NCBI GenBank assembly: GCA_045863395.1
Contig: BTVJ01000020.1
Coordinates: forward strand, 1 to 64,000
Source: Myxococcales bacterium
Lineage (GTDB): Bacteria; Myxococcota_A; UBA9042; JABWCM01; BTVJ01
Direction of reading: 5' to 3'
DNA length: 64,000 bases
Shown: in pieces, positions 6,983 through 63,221 of the stretch
How the letters are laid out: every line of letters starts with the position of its first letter
Position numbering within the stretch: the first letter of the stretch is position 1
Notes under the pieces: model-generated
Told to the model about the DNA's origin: nothing
The model's database searches: none
Seen by the model: only the letters and a program-made list of their open reading frames with translations
Program-made: the position numbers and the translations under genes

Positions 6983-8041
6983 TCAGCGCGCGAAGCGGAG
7001 CCGCGCCACGATTCCCCGGTGGTCCGACAGGGCGGGACCGTCATGAAGGACCCGCCCCTCCGTGACGACGAAGCCCGGGCGCACGAACAGGTAGTCCAGG
7101 CGGCGGCTGGGGGCGTCCGCGGGGAAGGTGAACGTGGCCGGGTCGTCGGGTCCGGCTGGCCCCAGCGCCTCCCGGAGCCCGTCCATTGCGTAGATCCTGG
7201 CCATGGACTTGTCCTCCCGGAAGTCCGCGTCCGGCTCGTCCGCAAAGCCATGGCGGCGGGTGGCGCCGGGCGGGAGCGCGTTGAAGTCACCGACCAGCAC
7301 GACCCGATCCGTCTCCAGCCCGCGCAGCACGTCCTCCAGGATGCCCACCTGAGCCTCCCGGTTGGGCACGTCAAACGCCTCCAGGTGCACGTTGACCAGC
7401 TCCACGACCCGACCGCCGCCCGCCTCGATGGTGACCGCCTGGAGCGCCCGGTGCAGGTAGAACCAGTTGTACCAGAACGGGTTTGCCGCGGGCTGCGGCA
7501 GCCGGTAGCGCACCGACGACCGGATCGGCAGGCGCGAGAGGACGCACTGGCCGCTCTTCATGCGCCCGTAGTGCCGAGCCGGTGGCCAGTAGGGGAACGG
7601 GACGTAGTTGTTCTCCCACGTCAGCGCGCACGCGTAGTTGGACCAACCGAGCTTCTCCGTGAGGTACCGGGCCTGGTCGATGCCGTGGCTGCGGTGGGCG
7701 CCGAGATCCACCTCCTGCAGCGCCGCCACGTGCGCGCCGGTCGCCTCGATCTGCGCGGCGAGGGCGTCCAGGGTTCGCTCGATGTGGTCCCGGGTCCAGG
7801 GTCCGGCCTCATCACCACCGGGCCCCCGCCCGTAGGCGATGTTGTAGCCGACGACGATCAGCTCGTCGCCGACCCCGCTCTCCGCTCGCGTCGCCCCCGC
7901 AAAGACATGCACCTCGCCCGGCGATACGGAGCGGCTGTCCGTCGTCCCGCTCGCCGCCCACCAGAGCAGGAGGGCGGCCACGACGAGCACGCCGAGCAGA
8001 GCGAGCAATGCGACCATCGTGACCCTTCTGAGCAGCTTCAT
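6983..8041 (-). CDS. Endonuclease/exonuclease/phosphatase (EEP) family protein, membrane anchored
   Basis: Motifs YNI, LQEVD, NVHL, GDFN, LDY, SDH; N-terminal transmembrane helix. Confidence 0.9.
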   Translation of the reverse strand: MKLLRRVTMVALLALLGVLVVAALLLWWAASGTTDSRSVSPGEVHVFAGATRAESGVGDELIVVGYNIAYGRGPGGDEAGPWTRDHIERTLDALAAQIEATGAHVAALQEVDLGAHRSHGIDQARYLTEKLGWSNYACALTWENNYVPFPYWPPARHYGRMKSGQCVLSRLPIRSSVRYRLPQPAANPFWYNWFYLHRALQAVTIEAGGGRVVELVNVHLEAFDVPNREAQVGILEDVLRGLETDRVVLVGDFNALPPGATRRHGFADEPDADFREDKSMARIYAMDGLREALGPAGPDDPATFTFPADAPSRRLDYLFVRPGFVVTEGRVLHDGPALSDHRGIVARLRFAR

Positions 8042-10373: not shown

Positions 10374-10447
10374 TGCGCGACACAGGATTCGAACCTGTGA
10401 CCTACGGCTCCGGAGGCCGTCGCTCTATCCAACTGAGCTAGCCGCGC
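10374..10447 (-). tRNA. tRNA-Arg(CCG); CCA not encoded
   Basis: Cloverleaf GCGCGGC TA GCTC AGTTGGATA GAGC G ACGGC CTCCGGA GCCGT AGGTC ACAGG TTCGAAT CCTGT GTCGCGC A. Confidence 0.97.
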
Positions 10448-14595: not shown

Positions 14596-15182
14596 GGTTC
14601 CGCTTGTGTGGCGAGGCATTGCGCAGCGCTCCAGGTGATTCCCCCTTCAGAACAGTCGACGGGGCCTACCATGACCCGCGCCAGAATCCGCTTGCGACCC
14701 ATGCGACGCTCGGTCATGGCGTCCGTCTCCCCCAGGGATCCGCCGACCCAGCCCGACGTGTACCAGGAGAAGACCCGCATGCAGTACCGCTCCCCGCTGC
14801 TGCCCGGTGCCGGCGTGTCGCCTGCCTCGGGCACCATCTTCGTGACGAAGTCGGGGCCTTTGCCGCCAGCGACGACCCACTGATCGAGCCCGAAGGAGCC
14901 CCACGCCTTGCTGTCGAAGGCGTTCTGGCCGAGCTGGTTCGCCCACACCTCGCACTGGTTGGCCGTCTTCATGAAGTCGACGGCGTTGCCCGACGCGGCG
15001 GTCATCGTCAGCATGGACCCGGTCTCTGCCACGGCAAGCCCCTGCCGCGCCATCTTGTAGTTGCCGGCGCTGGCGATCTCCTCGACCGTGCTGCGGACGG
15101 CGACGACCGCGATGGCGCCCAGCACGAGCAGGATCAGCATCGCCGTCACGAGCACCGCCCCTCTCTCGTCGGGTCGCCTCAC
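14592..15182 (-). CDS. pilX: Minor pilin PilX
   Basis: ERG/AVLVTAMLILLVL class III signal lacking Glu5, as typical of PilX; GTGA overlap with pilW. Confidence 0.8.
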   Translation of the reverse strand: MRRPDERGAVLVTAMLILLVLGAIAVVAVRSTVEEIASAGNYKMARQGLAVAETGSMLTMTAASGNAVDFMKTANQCEVWANQLGQNAFDSKAWGSFGLDQWVVAGGKGPDFVTKMVPEAGDTPAPGSSGERYCMRVFSWYTSGWVGGSLGETDAMTERRMGRKRILARVMVGPVDCSEGGITWSAAQCLATQAEP

Positions 15183-39987: not shown

Positions 39988-41991
39988 TCAGCCATCACGC
40001 GCGATGGGCTTTGCGCCCCGCAAGGGGACCTGGCCCTCCCGGTACGCCTGGTCGTACTTATAGACGTCCAGCAGGAACATGACGTGCCCGTCATCATCGA
40101 CGGAGACGGTGTTGTACTCGACATGCACCGGGATCTTGCGCCTGAGCGAGAGGCCGCGCTCCGTTCCCTTCTTGAGGATCTTGTCGAACTCCTCCGGCGT
40201 CAGGCGCCCATCCTTCTCGAAGATGAACCTGGCCATGTCCAGGGCGTTCTCCACCCGCATGCACCCGTGGCTGTACGCACGGATGGTGTTCTTGAACAGG
40301 TGCCGCTTGTTCGTGTCGTGCATGTAGATGGAGTAGTCGTTCGGGAACAGGAACTTGACGAGCCCCAGGGCATTCCACGTGCCGGGCTTCTGGTAGATCT
40401 GCATGGAGCCATCGCTCAGGGGTTGGAGCACATAGTTGTGCTTGTCCCAGTACCCCGGGTCCTTCTCCGCCAGCTTCGCCAGCTCCGTGTCGCGGATTCG
40501 CGTGGGGACCGTCCATCGCGGGTTGAGCACGATGGTCTCCATGGCGCTGCTGAAGAGCATCGTTCGGTTCAGGTTTCCCTCGACGCGGCGCTCTGGATCC
40601 ACCTCCCAGGCGTTGGAACCGACGACCACGTTGTACCGTCGCAGGAGCTTGCCGTCCTCCCAGAACTCCGCCTGGAACTGGGGGATGTTCACACGGATGT
40701 ACATCCCCGCCTCACGGCGGGTGGCGCTCTCCCTCCACCGCTGCAGGGAGAGCCTGATGTCGTCGATGCGGTCCTTGTAGGGCTTGTTCATGGACCGAAG
40801 GGTGGTCCCTGCCACGACCCCGTCCACGTCGAGCTGGTGCGTCACCTGGTAGGTGCGCACGGCCTTCTCGAGCCGCTCGTCGAACACTCCGTCCAGCGCG
40901 CCGGAGAAGTAGCCCTCCTCGGCGAGGCGCTGCTGGAGCTTCCTCACCGGATCACCCTTCTGGCCTCTCCGGTAGGTGCGGTCCGGCAGGCGGGTGAAGC
41001 GGTCGTCCGCCACGAGCTTCTCGTAGAACGCGAGGCCAGCCCGCGTGCGCTCATAGAGAGGATTGTCCGGCCACCAGGAGCGCAGCGTCTTCGCCACGTC
41101 GCCCTTGCCAGCCTCCAGATCGTCCAGCAGCTTCTGCTCGAAGACCTTGAACCCGCTGGACGGGTCTCGCATGGCCCGCCAGGGGTGCGCGACCTTCACA
41201 TACTTGAAGTCGAGGCCATAGCGGAACCAGGCGCTCAACAGGCGGATGTCCAGTGCCTGCAGCGTGTCGTTGAGCGCCTTCTTCGCCTCGAAGAGGGACG
41301 CCTGGAGCGCGACCACCTCGGCGACCGACTCGACGTCCGCGTCCGTGAGCCCCGCCTCGAGGAGGCCGGGCGCCAGATCGGCGGGCGAAGGCTCCCCCCG
41401 CACGAGCTCGAAGAGCGTACGGACCTTGCCAGCCGCACCGCTCAGCTCCTTTCCTCGCAGCTCCTGGTAGCCGGCGCTCCCTGCCTCATAGTCGGCGAGC
41501 AGCTTCTGGAGTTCGGTCAACCGATAGGGCTCGACCGCCACGCCGTGGCTCGGGAGCTCCTCGACCGCGCGGATCAGCTCGACGGCACCCGGCAGGAGCT
41601 CGGCTCCTCGCGCAAACGCGAAGCTCCACCCGTTGGCCTCATAGACCCTCTCCAGCAGGCGCCGGACCCCCTTCTCACGCGCGACGCGCTCCTTGAACGA
41701 TCGGTCGAAGGCATCGAGGAACGGCGCCTCCTGGGCGCGACGCTCCGCGATGGCCTTGCTGAGCGCCAGGGCCAGAGCATCGACAGGGGGCAGCGCCTCC
41801 CGAAGCATCTTGCTCGTGGGCGCCAGGCTGGCGGGCGCGGGTGCCGGAGGGGAGGGGTTGGTCGCACCCGCGGCAATCTGAGAGGGCGACGCCTCCGCGG
41901 ATGCCTCCGTGGGCACCGAGCTGCCGCAGGACGCCCCGCTGAACAGGAGCGCCAAGGCGAGCAGCCCCGTGGAGCATCGGGCACGGTTCAT
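39988..41991 (-). CDS. L,D-transpeptidase (YcbB/LdtD-like) lipoprotein with PG-binding domain
   Basis: Lipobox GASC; PG-binding LQQRL..DGVF..YQ..DGVV; YkuD motifs IYMHDT and SHGCMRV. Confidence 0.92.
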   Translation of the reverse strand: MNRARCSTGLLALALLFSGASCGSSVPTEASAEASPSQIAAGATNPSPPAPAPASLAPTSKMLREALPPVDALALALSKAIAERRAQEAPFLDAFDRSFKERVAREKGVRRLLERVYEANGWSFAFARGAELLPGAVELIRAVEELPSHGVAVEPYRLTELQKLLADYEAGSAGYQELRGKELSGAAGKVRTLFELVRGEPSPADLAPGLLEAGLTDADVESVAEVVALQASLFEAKKALNDTLQALDIRLLSAWFRYGLDFKYVKVAHPWRAMRDPSSGFKVFEQKLLDDLEAGKGDVAKTLRSWWPDNPLYERTRAGLAFYEKLVADDRFTRLPDRTYRRGQKGDPVRKLQQRLAEEGYFSGALDGVFDERLEKAVRTYQVTHQLDVDGVVAGTTLRSMNKPYKDRIDDIRLSLQRWRESATRREAGMYIRVNIPQFQAEFWEDGKLLRRYNVVVGSNAWEVDPERRVEGNLNRTMLFSSAMETIVLNPRWTVPTRIRDTELAKLAEKDPGYWDKHNYVLQPLSDGSMQIYQKPGTWNALGLVKFLFPNDYSIYMHDTNKRHLFKNTIRAYSHGCMRVENALDMARFIFEKDGRLTPEEFDKILKKGTERGLSLRRKIPVHVEYNTVSVDDDGHVMFLLDVYKYDQAYREGQVPLRGAKPIARDG

Positions 41992-42103
41992 CGGTTCCTC
42001 CAGACCAGCGCTCGGGGTCCTCGTGCAGTGGCTCAACTCTAGCTTCGACACTGAACGCCTGTCAACCATACAGCGTGGCAACGATCACCTCGTGCGAGGC
42101 GCC

Positions 42104-46589: not shown

Positions 46590-48698
46590 GTGGCAGACTC
46601 CGACGTCATGACCAGCCACCCGGCACACCTTCGACCGTGCCCCCCAAGCGCTCTGACCGCCGCCAGGCGCCTGTGCGGGTCGGGCACGGACCTGCTGGTC
46701 GCGCTCTTCGTGGCCGCGCTGCTCCCGGGCTGCGGCGACTCTCCGTCGAACACGGTGGGGGACCCTTGCTCTGCGGGCGCCCGGGTCTGCGACGGGCAGA
46801 CCGTGCTCCTGTGCAGCGCCGCCATCTCGACCTTCGTGGTGGAGCGGGAGTGTCCCACCGGCACGATCTGCTCGGCGGGTGAGTGTCGCCCCTCCTTCAC
46901 GGGGAGCGACGAGCTGCCAGACACTGGCGACGCCTCACCGGACCTCCCGGACGCGGGACCTGGCGGCAAGCCCGTGGAGGACGCGGGGGCCACCCAGCCG
47001 CACGATGGTGGCGAGACGGATGGTGCCGGCATGATTGATGGCCTGGCTCCGGCCGACACCGACGCCAACCAGGACGCAGCGACCATGGTGGACACCCCGA
47101 CGCCCATCGACGCACCGCACGTCATGGACACCGCCCCTCTCGACGACGCCACGGAGCCGGACGCCTCAGACGCCCCGGAGGTCGCGGACACGCAGCCCCC
47201 CGACGTCGACCAGCCCATCGACGTGCCGGTCACGCCCGATGCCCAGCCCCCCGACCCCTGCGGCAACGGCAAGCTGGACCCCGGTGAGCTGTGCGATCCC
47301 GCCATCGCGGCTGGCACCGGCGCCTGCCCCACGTCGTGCTACGACCCGCCGGGCTGCGCGATCCTGCTTCTCCAGGGGGACGCCGCCACCTGCAACGCCG
47401 TGTGCGAGAAGGTCCTCGTGTCGGAGCCGATCCCTGGGGACGACTGCTGCCCCGACGGCATGACCGCTGCCATGGACCCGGACTGCGCGGGCGAGTGCGG
47501 CAATGGCAAGAAGGACGGTGACGAGGAGTGCGACGGTGCCGACCTGGGCAACGGCACCTGCGGCACGTTCAGCCCCGCAAAGCCCTCATGCCTCGCGAAC
47601 TGCACGCTCTCGACCCTCCCGTGCCCGGGCACGCACGTGCTCCTGTACGAGAAGGTCAAGAATCTGAAGATCCTGGGTGACCTGTTCAGGGTCCGGTGGC
47701 ACCCCTCCGGCGCCTTCGCCCTGATCCTGGCGGGTGGTGGCGACGTCATCCGCTATGACGCGGACACCGACGAGCTCGTGGTGCTCGGCAACCTGTACGG
47801 TCCTCAGGACCTGGACGTCCACCCATCCGGGGACTACTTCGTCATCGTCGGCGCCGACAAGTCCAAGGTCGGGCACCGGTGGAGGGCCACGGTCGCCGAG
47901 GACCTGACGGTCACGCTCTCGGACGACGGCGTCCTGAGCAACGGGACCCCCGTCGCCGTCGTGTGGTCGGGCTGGAACGACCACTGGATCGCGGGCGCAA
48001 GGAGCGAGTACCCCTACACCAACTGGCTCACCCTCTGGGTGGACGGCGGGCCCCCGAAGCTCAAGGCGTGGTCATCCGGGGCGGGCCTCATCGACCTCAT
48101 GGTCGGGCACCCGTCCGTCTACTTCGGCGAGCCCACCGTGATCACCTCGGAGGGGGTCAACGGCAAGGACAGCAAGGCCTACATCCTGACCGAGGACGCC
48201 CTGCTGTCCTCCGGCATGCCAGCCAGCTTCGGCAACGCCGGGGCCGCGGCGTGGCGGCCCGGCGGCGGCTACGGCCTCGTCGCCGGGTGGTCGGCAGGCA
48301 AGCTCTACGTCCACACGGGATCGGCGTGGACCATGATGGCGCTCCCCAACGGCATCCCCAACGGTGCGGGCCCCAACGGCATCGCGTGGAAGGAGGACGG
48401 CAGCCGCGCCCTGATCGTCGGCAACGCCATCGGAACCTCGCTGCGCGCCATCGTGGTGGACCACCGCCCTGCTGGGAACCCGGCCTTCGACTCGTCGGCG
48501 TTCATCGAGCAGTCGATCAGCGGGTGGAGCAACCCGCCGTACAGCATGACGTCAGACGCGGATCTCCTGGCAGTGGACTGGCGCCCGGGCGAGTGTGACG
48601 AGGGCCTGATCGTCGGCTCGGATCCGGCCACCACCTGGAACCCGACGTTCGGCACGATCATCCGCTTTCGCGACCAGGACGACCCGGACTGCGAGTAG
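46590..48698 (+). CDS. Secreted lipoprotein with myxobacterial Cys-rich repeats and a C-terminal beta-propeller (start uncertain)
   Basis: Lipobox LPGC; Asp/Pro linker; CGNGKLDPGELCD and CGNGKKDGDEECD repeats; WHPSG/WRPG blade motifs. Confidence 0.8.
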   Translation: MADSDVMTSHPAHLRPCPPSALTAARRLCGSGTDLLVALFVAALLPGCGDSPSNTVGDPCSAGARVCDGQTVLLCSAAISTFVVERECPTGTICSAGECRPSFTGSDELPDTGDASPDLPDAGPGGKPVEDAGATQPHDGGETDGAGMIDGLAPADTDANQDAATMVDTPTPIDAPHVMDTAPLDDATEPDASDAPEVADTQPPDVDQPIDVPVTPDAQPPDPCGNGKLDPGELCDPAIAAGTGACPTSCYDPPGCAILLLQGDAATCNAVCEKVLVSEPIPGDDCCPDGMTAAMDPDCAGECGNGKKDGDEECDGADLGNGTCGTFSPAKPSCLANCTLSTLPCPGTHVLLYEKVKNLKILGDLFRVRWHPSGAFALILAGGGDVIRYDADTDELVVLGNLYGPQDLDVHPSGDYFVIVGADKSKVGHRWRATVAEDLTVTLSDDGVLSNGTPVAVVWSGWNDHWIAGARSEYPYTNWLTLWVDGGPPKLKAWSSGAGLIDLMVGHPSVYFGEPTVITSEGVNGKDSKAYILTEDALLSSGMPASFGNAGAAAWRPGGGYGLVAGWSAGKLYVHTGSAWTMMALPNGIPNGAGPNGIAWKEDGSRALIVGNAIGTSLRAIVVDHRPAGNPAFDSSAFIEQSISGWSNPPYSMTSDADLLAVDWRPGECDEGLIVGSDPATTWNPTFGTIIRFRDQDDPDCE

Positions 48699-48740
48699 CG
48701 CCGGGCGGGCCCCCGCCGAGCCGGCACTGGTGGAGGAGCC

Positions 48741-49334
48741 ATGGCCATCCGCGACATCCTGACCGCAGGTCACCCGACCCTGTACGAGCCCACGCGGGAG
48801 CTGGACACTTCGGAGATCACAGCCTCCCGGACCACGCAGCTCATCGCGGATCTGGTGGACACCATGCGCGCGCGGGGGGGCGCCGGCCTCGCGGCGAACC
48901 AGGTGGGGGAGGCGGTCAGGGTCTGCGTCATCGAAGTGCGCGAGCGCAACCCGCGCTATCCGTTTCTTCCGACAATCCCGCTCCGCGTGATGATCAACCC
49001 CCGAATCACGGCGCTCAGTGACGCCCCGCGGCTTCAAAGCTACGAGGGTTGCCTCTCCGTCCCCGGCCTGCGCGGGCTGGTCCTTCGGCACGAGCACATT
49101 CGCGTCGGGTACGTGGACGAGGGGGGCGCAGTCCGAACGCTTCGAGCCCGGGGCACCGCCGCCATCGTGTTCCAGCACGAGGTGGACCACCTGGACGGGC
49201 GCCTCTTCCTGGACCTGGTCACGGACCCCCGCACCCTGGTGACCACCGAGAGCTTCGAGCGCTGGCACCGGGACCCGTGGCTGCTCCGCCTGAGGGCTGC
49301 GGAGATACCTGGTCCCGAGATCATCGACGAGTGA
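48741..49334 (+). CDS. def: Peptide deformylase
   Basis: GAGLAANQ, EGCLS and HEVDH motifs. Confidence 0.96.
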   Translation: MAIRDILTAGHPTLYEPTRELDTSEITASRTTQLIADLVDTMRARGGAGLAANQVGEAVRVCVIEVRERNPRYPFLPTIPLRVMINPRITALSDAPRLQSYEGCLSVPGLRGLVLRHEHIRVGYVDEGGAVRTLRARGTAAIVFQHEVDHLDGRLFLDLVTDPRTLVTTESFERWHRDPWLLRLRAAEIPGPEIIDE

Positions 49335-49424
49335 GCTGCGGTCCGGCTCGTGGGACGACGTACTCGGCCTGCGGCGGAGAGGCGACCCAAGCTGGTGGGT
49401 GGATGGATGAGGCGATCTGAGGAC

Positions 49425-49449
49425 AAAAAAATGTGAGGCGCTGACGACG
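49425..49449 (-). terminator. 3' arm of the closing helix plus U7 tract (putative 3' end of the ncRNA)
   Basis: CGUCGUCAGCGCCUCAC-A-UUUUUUU on the minus strand; long A/T runs are rare in this GC-rich window. Confidence 0.55.
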
Positions 49450-50494
49450 TTCACTGCGGAGGACCCGTTCGCCTCTCCAGAGGACTGAGGTTCGGGCAGG
49501 CGGAGCGTACCGCGTCACCGCGGAGACTCCCAGCTCTCATGAGGTTCGGTTGCCTCTCAGCGTCTTGTATCCGGTCGCCGTAGCGCGCTATTGGTTTGGC
49601 GCTCCCTCTACGCTCTTCGGTCGGCTTTCGCCGCCGCGAACCCTGAGGTATTTCGACGTCCGGGTCGCCCTTCGAGTTCACGAAGGGGTCATCCGCTCAC
49701 AGGCTTTCCGCCTCTTCAGAGCCTTGCGAAGCAGCGCACCGGGCTGACCTTGCGGTAGCTTCTCGGTGTTGCTTCCGATGCTGGGCGAGACCATGCATCG
49801 CTGCTCGTACCCGCCACCCGCTCCCCGGATGGCACCTCTCTTGAGGTTCTCTTCCCCTACAGCGCTATGAGCCAGGAGAGTCCTTTTCTCGCATTCCGTT
49901 GCAGCAATGCCGCTTGGTCCGCGATGACGGAGTTGCCTCCTCCGCCACCTTTCCGCCTTCAGGGTTTCTCACCCTCTTGGCGGCTTTCTCCTCTCTTGGC
50001 CTCGCCGGTCTGTTTCACCCGACAAGCGCTCTTGGGGTTCACGCCCTTCAGAGCTTTTCCCTCCGCGGCAGCCGTATCACCTCGTCGGTGACCTATGCCC
50101 TCATGACGTTCATCGTCGCTCCGTTGCCGGTGCGGCCGCTCGCCTTCAGGGCCTTGCTCTACCTTGGAGTCCGTTGACGGCGCGCCGTGTCTCCACCGCG
50201 TTGCCGTCCCGATGCTCTCTTGGGCTTCACTCCCTCCAGGGACCTCACTCTCTCCGGCGCGGCATCGATTTCGCGACGCCTCCTCTCCCGAGCTTTTCCA
50301 CACTGGCCTTCCGCTGTGGTTTCCCACCCCGGCTCGCCAATGCGACGGCTCCTCAGAGTCTCTGCTTCCGGAGAGCACGGCTTGCCTCTCTCGAGAGCTG
50401 CCGTCCCTCTTGGGATTCTCGGCCTCCAGCTTCGCAAGCGACTGCTGGGTTGGCCCGGGTCACATCCGCTGGCTCGTCACCAGCGCCTCACGGG
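49425..50494 (-). ncRNA. Candidate large (~1.06 kb) modular structured non-coding RNA
   Basis: No credible ORF; sigma54 motif upstream; 17-bp 5'/3' closing helix with two G-U pairs; U7 tract; nine covarying helix/3x3-loop motifs. Confidence 0.8.
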
Positions 50495-50504
50495 AACCAG
50501 TAGT

Positions 50505-50520
50505 TGCAACCCCCAGGCCA
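50505..50520 (-). promoter_or_regulatory. Putative sigma54 -24/-12 promoter of the ncRNA
   Basis: TGGCCTGGGGGTTGCA (GG-N10-GC); predicted +1 near 50494, 3 nt before the 5' helix arm; AT-rich tract upstream. Confidence 0.72.
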
Positions 50521-50826
50521 ACTCGTGCCACAACGAGAATAAATCCACAACCACATGAAAACTCTCGGACAATTCATCAGGACCGGCCCACGGGGGGCCG
50601 CCAGAGACCCTGGCCACGCGACGGTCAGCAATGTGGAACCGACGGAGCCCACTGACGCCTGACCAGCAATAGCGCCGATGCTGTCGCATGCGAAGGAGGG
50701 TGAACATGTCCAGGTTCTGAACACTGCCCCGCCCACTCGCTCCACCTTTCGAAGTGACGCCCGTGGTGTTACACTTCGCCGCCAACGTAGTGGGTGCCGA
50801 TGTTGGCCAGGAGAGCGGAGTTGCTC

Positions 50827-52317
50827 ATGCGCGGGCTGGGTTGGGTGGCAATCGTCGCGGCAGTGTCCTCGGGCTGCTCGGCGACGCTGGAGTTCGAGGA
50901 GTGCTCGCAGGATGCGGACTGCGCGGCCCGCGGGCCCGGCATGGTCTGCTCCACCGAGGGCTTCTGCGTCGACCGCAGCAGCCTGGTCGCAGAGGTCCCA
51001 CTGACCACCGAGGAGTGCAGCGCGGCCTTCGGGCCCGTCAACGAGCCGGGAACCGTCCTGGTCGGCACGCTGCTCCCCACTACGGGCGACAACGCCTCCA
51101 TCGGCGTACCCATGGAGCACGCGGTTCTCCTCGCAATCAAGGAGTTCAATGAGCACGGCGGGCTGACCGGAGGCCGCAAGCTGGCCGTGCTGCTCTGCGA
51201 CACGGGCGGCAGCACGGACAGAGGCGTGAGGGCAGCCAAGCACCTGGTCGCGCTTGGCGTCCCCGGCGCCGTCGGCCCGGCCTTCAGCAGCGTCGCCATC
51301 GAGGTCGCCTCCCGCTTCGCCGCCCCTGGACCCGAGAGCCCGAGCGGCCTCGTGCTGATCAGCCCCTCGGCCACGAGCCCGGCCATCTCGGCACTGAGCG
51401 ACGAGGACCGCGTGTGGCGCACCGTCCCGAGCGACGCGCTCCAGGGCAAGGCGATGGCCCACGTCATCCTCAACAGCGAGAGCTATGGGCTGCCCCCGTT
51501 CGAGCGGGTGACGGTCCTTTATAAAGATGATGCGTACGGCACGGGCCTCCTGACCGCCTTGGTGGAGAGCCTGCCCGGCACTGGGGGGCCGGCGCTGTCC
51601 TCCGTCAAGTACGCGGACCCGACGAAGGAGGTCGTCTACGCCAAGGACCTGCTTCCGAAGCTCGACGAGACGGAGCCGGAGCTGGTCGTGATGATCGGCA
51701 CTGCCGAGACCGCGAAGCTGCTACCCTTCTTCGAGTACGCCTGGCGAAGCCGCCCGACTCCAGTGCGCTGGTTCCTCGCAGACGGCAGCAAGACGGACGC
51801 GCTGTTCACCGAGATCGCGGCGCTGCCTTCCGGGATGGATAAGGCCGGCATCCGGGCCCGCATCCGGGGGACGGCACCGCGGGCGGGGAGCGGCAAGCAC
51901 TTCAACGCCTTCAAAGCGCGGCTGGGGGGGGAGTTCGGGTACCCGGAGCCCCCCGTGTACGCCGCGCAGGCCTATGACGCCACCTACATGCTCGCGCTGG
52001 CGTTGGGCGCGAGCACCCGGTCCTACCCGGACTCGGGCGAGATCGTTGCGGGCCTCCGCAGGCTCACGGGAGGAGCGGAGGTCATCCCGGCGACCCCGTC
52101 GAGCATCACCAAGGGGATCCAGCTCCTCCGGTCAGCTCCCGACGCCAGGATCGACTTCGACGGGGCATCGGGCTCCCTCGACTTCGGCGCCGACGGGGAG
52201 GCGCCGGGCCCCATCGATCTGTGGGCGCCCCACGACGGCGCCTTCGTGGCCTGCGGCCTGCTGGACGAGGGCGCGGCTCCGGTCGATCCGTCGGCGGCCG
52301 GCTGCGACGCGCTGTAG
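50827..52317 (+). CDS. ABC-type (branched-chain amino acid family) substrate-binding lipoprotein with N-terminal Cys-rich module
   Basis: Lipobox SSGC; GGLTGGRKL, GPAFSS, ISPSATSP, RTVPSDALQG, DAYG, AYDA, GASGSLDF. Confidence 0.88.
   Translation: MRGLGWVAIVAAVSSGCSATLEFEECSQDADCAARGPGMVCSTEGFCVDRSSLVAEVPLTTEECSAAFGPVNEPGTVLVGTLLPTTGDNASIGVPMEHAVLLAIKEFNEHGGLTGGRKLAVLLCDTGGSTDRGVRAAKHLVALGVPGAVGPAFSSVAIEVASRFAAPGPESPSGLVLISPSATSPAISALSDEDRVWRTVPSDALQGKAMAHVILNSESYGLPPFERVTVLYKDDAYGTGLLTALVESLPGTGGPALSSVKYADPTKEVVYAKDLLPKLDETEPELVVMIGTAETAKLLPFFEYAWRSRPTPVRWFLADGSKTDALFTEIAALPSGMDKAGIRARIRGTAPRAGSGKHFNAFKARLGGEFGYPEPPVYAAQAYDATYMLALALGASTRSYPDSGEIVAGLRRLTGGAEVIPATPSSITKGIQLLRSAPDARIDFDGASGSLDFGADGEAPGPIDLWAPHDGAFVACGLLDEGAAPVDPSAAGCDAL

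Positions 52318-59532: not shown

Positions 59533-63221
<3,689 letters not shown>

Follow-up and report, generated by a model that had tools for sequence, protein, structure and literature searches.

This analysis concerns a 64,000-nucleotide (nt) stretch of DNA from a Myxococcales bacterium (contig BTVJ01000020.1, positions 1 to 64,000; the window), in which a minus-strand RNA carrying nine copies of a helix/3x3-internal-loop motif had been predicted at 49472-50415 from the sequence. The region is an independent gene that encodes a stable, abundant and highly structured non-coding RNA, which most likely represents a new class of large 'ornate' bacterial non-coding RNA. The RNA is longer than 500 nt, does not code for protein, contains many covarying helices and conserved unpaired bases, and is transcribed on its own. 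It is organized as four tandem domains (D1, D2, D3 and DIV), with a further domain called 'D5' nested two levels deep in DIV, and not as the six tandem domains first proposed.

A discrete and abundant transcript

The element lies in the gap between two plus-strand genes (49335-50793). The G+C content is ~0.62 within this gap compared with ~0.72 around it, and the minus strand is purine-rich there. Six sludge or wastewater metatranscriptome runs from five studies contain 70-81% of the sampled words from 49300-50700. Contigs from four of the runs (four studies) were mapped onto 48600-51400 (Table 1). Contig cover is limited to about 49433-50480, and flanking pieces in the same runs have depths of 0-113. 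Because the four independent assemblies end within a few bases of each other inside a gene-free gap, there is good evidence that a discrete, abundant RNA of ~1,050 nt is transcribed here. Neither neighboring gene belongs to the transcript because the contig limits exclude both genes and both sit on the opposite strand. The RNA contigs from all four runs are continuous over the whole element, and no spliced joint was found in them. Coding potential was assessed with tblastn, and the matches are short, fall in several frames on both strands and lie over one conserved island.

Contigs of other organisms in the same metatranscriptomes match only the hairpin D3i (49951-49991; depths 1726, 1430 and 176), and related RNAs of other community members seem to be abundant too.

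Secondary structure and covariation

The original prediction paired the minus strand into six tandem domains, D1 to D6, each closed by one copy of the motif, with three more copies (D1i, D2i and D3i) inside D1, D2 and D3. All 18 arm sequences occur at the minus-strand coordinates given for them, and the five linkers quoted between domains (GUGAA, GUGAA, AAGAGAA, CGGAAA and AACCGAA) are present, linkers ending in AA being a feature of the family. Assignment of the RNA to the minus strand is supported. The D2+D3 segment folds with z = -6.15 on the minus strand, where 0/100 shuffles fold as well, compared with -3.2 on the plus strand. The thermodynamic fold recovers D2, D3, D5, D1i, D2i and D3i with p >0.78; p is 0.05 for D1 and 0 for D4 and D6 as first paired. 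Imposing all nine modules in the revised pairing described below, together with a terminal duplex (P1), requires 9.8 of 515 kcal/mol more than the free minimum, which already holds P1 and most of the modules.

Covariation was evaluated in alignments of homologues. A structure-blind hidden Markov model alignment of 34 non-redundant homologues retains every module by means of compensatory changes, and the helix/3x3-loop module is real and covaries at nine fixed positions, as had been claimed. A MAFFT alignment of 26 full-length sequences (A3) was scored against the revised nine-module structure, in which 90.8% of cells are paired and 58/80 pairs are altered on both sides. The covariation score of 0.484 for A3 compares with 0.188 in shuffles, none of which reaches the observed value (0/500), and with 0.075-0.134 when the partners are slid. 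'D5' (helices 17-19) is poorly aligned in A3. An unbiased, all-against-all column scan of 51 sequences places 16 of the 18 module half-helices among the best candidates. The same scan yields five extra hairpin helices, four of which lie in 'D5' and the fifth in the 3' part of DIV; the helices scored in 'D5' are 49704-01:49555-52, 49697-94:49562-59, 49657-54:49580-77, 49648-45:49608-05, 49641-38:49615-12 and 49602-598:49587-83.

The six-domain arrangement does not survive these data because D4 and D6 were mis-partnered. With the partners first assigned, the half-helices of D4 and D6 are 69, 86, 74 and 88% paired, and 2/16 pairs are compensatory. Swapping the partners, to 49846-49836:49482-49472 and 49721-49711:49544-49534, gives half-helices that are 100, 100, 97 and 95% paired, with 11/16 pairs compensatory. 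Lineages such as L004, L007, L016, L020, L026 and L038 decide the partners in this 3' part of the RNA, and both of the swapped helices enclose the closing helix of 'D5'. The outer pairing of DIV was also chosen independently by RNAalifold and by the unbiased column scan, and the inner DIV module (49721-49711/49544-49534) is present in the unconstrained minimum free energy (MFE) structure. The RNA therefore has four tandem domains plus nesting.

A six-way junction is formed by the P1 duplex of both RNA ends, a small hairpin (P2) and domains D1, D2, D3 and DIV, with junction linkers GAGAA, GUGAA, GUGAA, AAGAGAA and CGAA. Terminal 5'/3' duplexes of other sequence occur in seven further homologous loci, among 20 of the 26 sequences that were examined for them, and U-runs are found in six homologues at the same place as the U-run that follows P1 in the window. 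The closing loop of D2 matches the consensus in 33/33 sequences with letters. The 5' half of D3 is the most conserved part of the RNA, and within D3 the D3i hairpin has 9 pairs, of which 8 are compensatory and 0-1 broken. Each of D1-D3 had been put at about 185 nt. This length holds for the copy in the window but not across homologues, in which the medians differ and expansions of these three domains reach 457 nt (Table 1).

The internal-loop module

The module consists of a helix, a symmetric 3x3 loop with the form 5'-C-RNG-R-3'/5'-Y-GNR-G-3' (R, purine; Y, pyrimidine; N, any base) and a second helix. A motif scanner requiring C-RNG-AG / CU-GNR-G with 3+2 flanking pairs was run on 49425-50470. 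This strict scan finds 12 pairings on the minus strand, compared with a mean of 0.067 (maximum 2) in 1000 dinucleotide shuffles, and 0 pairings on the plus strand of the element; the motif is therefore far above chance. The shuffled controls that the original prediction had named as a check come out in its favor, as both the nested motif count and the D2+D3 fold energy lie beyond the shuffles. The strict pattern misses 'D5', where the outer closing pair is U-A. Five isolated strict-pattern pairings lie outside the element, at 60197-60503 and 41929-42025 on the minus strand and at 7535-7715 and 15091-15147 on the plus strand, which is about the chance expectation over 2 x 64 kb.

The module was surveyed at nine positions in 34 homologues (9 x 34 instances), and 238 of the 278 instances with letters fit the consensus. 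The outer R.R opposition is A.A in 202 cases, G.G in 29 and G.A in 2, and covaries as a homopurine pair. Within the consensus set, the G.G opposition beside the R-Y pair never varies, and the middle opposition is free. The closing R-Y pair is AU (176), GC (53) or GU (4). The RNG strands (n = 233) are AGG (68), AAG (54), AUG (52), ACG (28), GAG (20), GGG (6), GCG (4) and GUG (1); on the opposing GNR strand, position 2 is A in 144/233 and the triplet GGA accounts for 52/233. The loop may consist of three stacked non-Watson-Crick oppositions, namely A.A or G.G, then N.N, then the invariant G.G.

The number of modules per homologue has a median of 9 (range 6-12); shuffled sequences give about 1-4 and the antisense strand 0-3. 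Each module adjoins a junction, from which it is separated by 4-5 bp, and occupies the same position in all lineages. The RNG strand is 5' in D2, D3 and DIV and usually in D1, D3i and D5; D1i, D2i and the inner DIV helix have the opposite order, with the GNR strand 5'. Repetition of the module had been attributed to internal duplication. A recent duplication is not supported by the sequences of D1-D5, which share nothing past the closing motif; their mean column identity is 43%, and the invariant columns are nearly all in the arms. An ancient internal duplication may have taken place.

Family and distribution

Blastn finds conserved islands only, in 12/61 relatives and 13/107 genomes of the class. 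Iterated nhmmer and a covariance model were needed because blastn saw only fragments. Iterated nhmmer recovers homologues of ~0.85-1.4 kb that are collinear over their full length. A closed 9.3-Mb genome of the class (G045) likewise contains a full-length homologue, at C1 about 4377914-4378987. The covariance model, R1, was built on 50062-49945 (118 nt, 19 invariant columns) and matches 60/107 genomes of the class with 1-4 copies each. Among sampled genomes of the phylum, 38/151 match, 20 of them outside the class, with up to 6 copies. A pattern for the D2/D3 boundary was run on one genome per species (185,579 species) and gave 20 loci, all of which were confirmed by nhmmer. These loci are labeled Myxococcota/Myxococcales (12), Deltaproteobacteria (4), Proteobacteria (2, one of them a metagenome-assembled genome), Planctomycetota (1) and 'bacterium' (1). 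As far as searched, the family is restricted to Myxococcota, with 1-6 copies per genome.

The highest copy numbers were found in genome G113 (up to 6) and in G028 and G048 (4 each). The genome that contains the window has a second, partial and diverged copy on contig C117 (662-783), which shares 72% identity with the RNA across the D3 region and has an R1 score of 112.9 bits. Paired R1 matches 0.8-3.6 kb apart (G048:C114:24312-25387, G048:C217:48425-49375 and G227:C29:352-4064) may be tandem RNA copies or duplicated D3-like domains. Three homologous loci have large inserts between the D1-D3 block and the 3' block (L037:4215-6440, 2.2 kb; L025:2558-3860, 1.3 kb; L024:2699-3396, 0.7 kb). The open reading frames (ORFs) of the inserts have no Pfam match in L037 and L025 and no codon-position GC bias in any of the three. 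The inserts may be expansion segments, or the genes may be split.

No neighboring gene is conserved among 20 loci, whose 74 flanking ORFs belong to varied, unrelated Pfam families. Recurrent neighbors are limited to tolB, which is upstream of the RNA in 4 loci, and to two downstream genes, MatE (3 loci) and feoB (2 loci). None of the Rfam 15 families, among them OLE, GOLLD, ROOL, HEARO, raiA, RNase P, tmRNA, 6S and the group I and II introns, reaches its gathering score in the element, eight homologous loci give 0 hits, and raising E up to 10 on 49000-51000 gives one noise hit with 18.9 bits against a cut-off of 79. No prior description of this RNA was found in Rfam 15 or in the full-text literature, a scope that leaves out subscription journals and unpublished motif collections.

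Role of the module

The module may be an RNA-intrinsic architectural or docking element in a compact, scaffold-like particle, and we give this role an even chance. It is favored because the modules keep to junction bases, occupy ancient positions and are accompanied by many other conserved loops. P1 closes the six-way junction that carries the small hairpin and the four domains, and in such a particle a module at the start of every domain and main sub-domain would serve as a strut of fixed geometry. Alternatively, the module could dock the A-rich linkers and the many conserved GNRA-type loops. In either case the domains could come together in a single compact particle, which may be oligomeric and would serve as a scaffold or as the core of a ribonucleoprotein. 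A more extensive version of this idea holds that the RNG/GNR loop is an uncatalogued three-dimensional motif, that nine identical connectors fold a ~1-kb, perhaps self-assembling, RNA into a protein-free or protein-poor nano-particle, and that sigma-54 controls the RNA in some lineages. This combination is unlikely to hold in full. If it did, the RNA would be a fourth, phylum-specific natural RNA quaternary architecture with its own building principle.

Several observations weigh against an abundant RNA organized around an architectural module. About 44% of class genomes have no R1 match, which indicates that the RNA is not essential everywhere. The depth of contigs is a poor proxy for expression, and neither the strand nor the exact ends can be read from contigs. 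Within the match columns that it covers, the column scan shows no convincing pseudoknot, loop-loop or tertiary Watson-Crick pairing, and the tertiary contacts of the module are predicted. Strict invariance of the loop bases at nine sites is to be expected, too, if one common protein reads them. Finally, the orientation of the module is flipped in D1 in 7/30 sequences and also in some D3i and D5 copies. Flips are hard to square with a strongly directional bend; a binding site, or an element close to symmetric, accommodates them more easily.

The flips bear directly on the alternative that the RNA is a multivalent protein-binding array, in which each module binds one copy of the same protein or protomer and the RNA either sequesters that protein as a sponge or assembles a large particle. 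We consider this somewhat unlikely. Consecutive purine-purine oppositions are classic sites of peptide binding, as they widen the major groove. Nine sites repeat the same loop letters irrespective of helix sequence with an invariant G.G opposition, end-for-end flips are tolerated in D1, D3i and D5, lineage-specific expansions add modules to give 6-12 per RNA, and the RNA is very abundant. However, the number and placement of sites change quickly in known sponge RNAs, whereas the nine sites here are fixed in position across the classes of the phylum. An array also has no need of the many further conserved unpaired bases and hairpin loops, and no gene for a partner protein is conserved beside the RNA among the 74 flanking ORFs of the 20 loci.

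Those conserved unpaired bases would find a use if the RNA were a large ribozyme or supplied an enzyme with its RNA subunit, with the modules merely building a fold around an active site. Candidates for such a site are the GGCAGC..CGARAG..GCAAGCC element in D1 and the UGAAACA and GAACCAAUA loops of D3 and D5, respectively. The large size and complexity of the RNA and its islands of unpaired nucleotides that hardly vary (118 nt contain 19 invariant columns) are compatible with catalysis, as is a domain wheel with a terminal closing helix, since RNase P and group II introns are likewise domain wheels shut by a terminal helix. We nevertheless regard catalysis as improbable. The continuous contigs give no sign of self-cleavage or splicing, no substrate or linked gene was recognized at the loci surveyed, no Rfam ribozyme family matches, and the canonical RNase P RNA is located elsewhere in the same genome.

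An RNA of a mobile element or phage (as is often the case for GOLLD and ROOL, or else a degenerate group II intron) or a long untranslated region of a neighboring mRNA is very improbable, despite the several copies in some genomes and a layout like a six-armed wheel, because the 74 flanking ORFs of the 20 loci include no integrase, transposase, reverse transcriptase or phage gene, a pattern scan of viral contigs gave 0 matches and blastn against plasmids and phages none, group II intron models give no match even with E relaxed to 10, the inserts are non-coding, without codon-position bias or a Pfam match, and the transcript limits leave out both neighboring genes, which are on the opposite strand.

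Comparison with known RNAs

To our knowledge, OLE, GOLLD and ROOL have not been described as containing nine repeats of a single internal-loop module. The RNA resembles these three in being hundreds to >1,000 nt long, in its many covarying helices and islands of invariant unpaired bases, in being restricted to a lineage and in having had no known function when found. It differs from them in lacking an Rfam model match, in belonging to a different phylum and in having no link to phages or plasmids, and from OLE also in the absence of adjacent partner genes. Kretsch et al. (Nature 2025, PMC12286853) describe OLE, GOLLD and ROOL as forming RNA-only homo-oligomers, and a repeated docking module might serve such homo-oligomer formation.

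The module follows the logic of the kink-turn, as a short loop motif is reused at helix bases, its loop letters are conserved and the flanking helices covary. Like the kink-turn, it could be a shape-setting element and a protein-binding site at once. By sequence criteria it is not a kink-turn: in each of the nine modules both loop strands are 3 nt long with no 3-nt bulge, and tandem G.A/A.G pairs are not conserved, the candidate A sitting in the covarying R-Y pair and the G facing a G. UAA/GAN and loop E motifs are also purine-rich internal loops between Watson-Crick pairs, and UAA/GAN shares the 3x3 size and a strand that begins with G. In UAA/GAN one strand starts with U and the other with GA, but here 0/233 RNG strands start with U and position 2 of the GNR strand is free. 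The loop E/sarcin-ricin motif, an asymmetric AGUA/GAA-type loop with a bulged G, does not fit a symmetric 3x3 loop that lacks this asymmetry and a conserved GUA.

A multi-domain wheel, a variable, insertion-tolerant domain and a similar size are shared with group II introns. This identity was rejected on the basis of no model match, no domain-5-like hairpin by those models, no reverse transcriptase or maturase domain in or near the element and no spliced joint. CsrB and RsmZ are small, fast-evolving RNAs that sequester CsrA through a GGA motif in hairpin loops or single strands. In them, too, a short motif recurs many times within an abundant RNA; unlike theirs, the present module is a two-stranded internal loop, its sites are fixed over the phylum, and GGA makes up only a minority of the GNR strands.

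Large, intricate bacterial RNAs of unknown function are rare, and each of them (OLE, GOLLD, ROOL and raiA) has opened structural or functional work. The present RNA is abundant in wastewater and sludge metatranscriptomes and widespread in a phylum of social and predatory bacteria. Its use of one loop motif nine times at junction bases makes clear predictions on structure and binding. Should the module prove to be a novel motif for tertiary contacts or protein binding, it would offer RNA nanotechnology a ready-made part.

Promoter, RNA ends and minor features

A candidate sigma-54-type site lies upstream of the RNA (Table 1). It ends 13 nt before the first base of P1 and predicts a +1 position near 50494. 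The same site with the same spacing occurs in four homologues (L002, L009, L017 and L033), and other lineages are without it. A score of at least 9/11 against the sigma-54 consensus is reached by 5/26 upstream regions compared with 2% of 395 random 220-nt pieces. Some of the lineages without a sigma-54-like site seem to carry sigma-70-like boxes instead. A simple promoter and terminator scan found no sigma-70 site and a single terminator-like site, on the opposite strand.

Some RNA contigs stop within the P1 duplex, at 50480 and 50479 in two studies and at 49442 in a third contig end, from one study. Position 50480 pairs with 49444, which gives a 2-nt offset relative to the contig end at 49442. 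This is a weak hint of a 2-nt stagger in P1 such as an RNase III-type cut would leave.

Table 1. Features of the RNA locus, with domain lengths in homologues. Coordinates are those of the window; p values are from the thermodynamic fold, and helix numbers are those of the covariation analysis.
Feature	Position	Strand	Length in homologues, median (range), nt	Evidence or remarks
Whole transcript, ~1,050-1,070 nt	49425..50494	minus		contig cover and P1 span 50491..49433; start predicted near 50494-50491; end at U-run
RNA contig, run X12	49515-50473			depth 3670
RNA contig, run X15	49519-50479			depth 1011
RNA contig, run X16	49442-50433			depth 131
RNA contig, run X19	49433-50480			depth 7.6
Sigma-54-type promoter-like site, TGGCCT-N5-TTGCA	50505..50520	minus		9/11 positions of the sigma-54 consensus
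P1, 5' strand	50456..50491	minus		cofold with 49467-49433, 31 bp
P2 hairpin, between P1 and D1	50421..50455	minus		thermodynamic fold only
D1	50231..50415	minus	181 (153-457)	closed by module 50415-50403/50243-50231; helices 1-2, 8/10 pairs compensatory
D1i, in D1	50283..50358	minus		module 50358-50348/50293-50283; p 0.79-0.94; helices 3-4
D2	50043..50225	minus	187 (165-397)	module 50225-50214/50054-50043; p 0.91-0.98; helices 5-6
D2i, in D2	50097..50152	minus		module 50152-50141/50108-50097; helices 7-8, 96-97% paired
D3	49854..50037	minus	148 (140-355)	module 50037-50025/49866-49854; helices 9-10
D3i hairpin	49953..49983	minus		module capped by conserved GAGAA loop; helices 11-12, 95-100% paired
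DIV	49472..49846	minus	320 (279-898)	module 49846-49836/49482-49472; helices 13-14, 100% paired, 6/8 pairs compensatory
Sub-domain within DIV	49534..49721	minus		module 49721-49711/49544-49534; helices 15-16, 97%/95% paired, 5/8 pairs compensatory
Innermost sub-domain, 'D5'	49552..49704	minus		module 49704-49694/49562-49552; p about 1.0; four further covarying hairpins inside
P1, 3' strand	49433..49467	minus		cofold; also in unconstrained MFE of 50491-49425
U-run directly after P1, terminator-like	49425..49431	minus		read from sequence
Peptide deformylase gene	48741-49334	plus		flanks the RNA gap
Periplasmic solute-binding protein gene	50794-52317	plus		flanks the RNA gap on the other side

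Away from the RNA locus, the window contains a tRNA gene on the minus strand at 10374-10447, which is its sole Rfam match.

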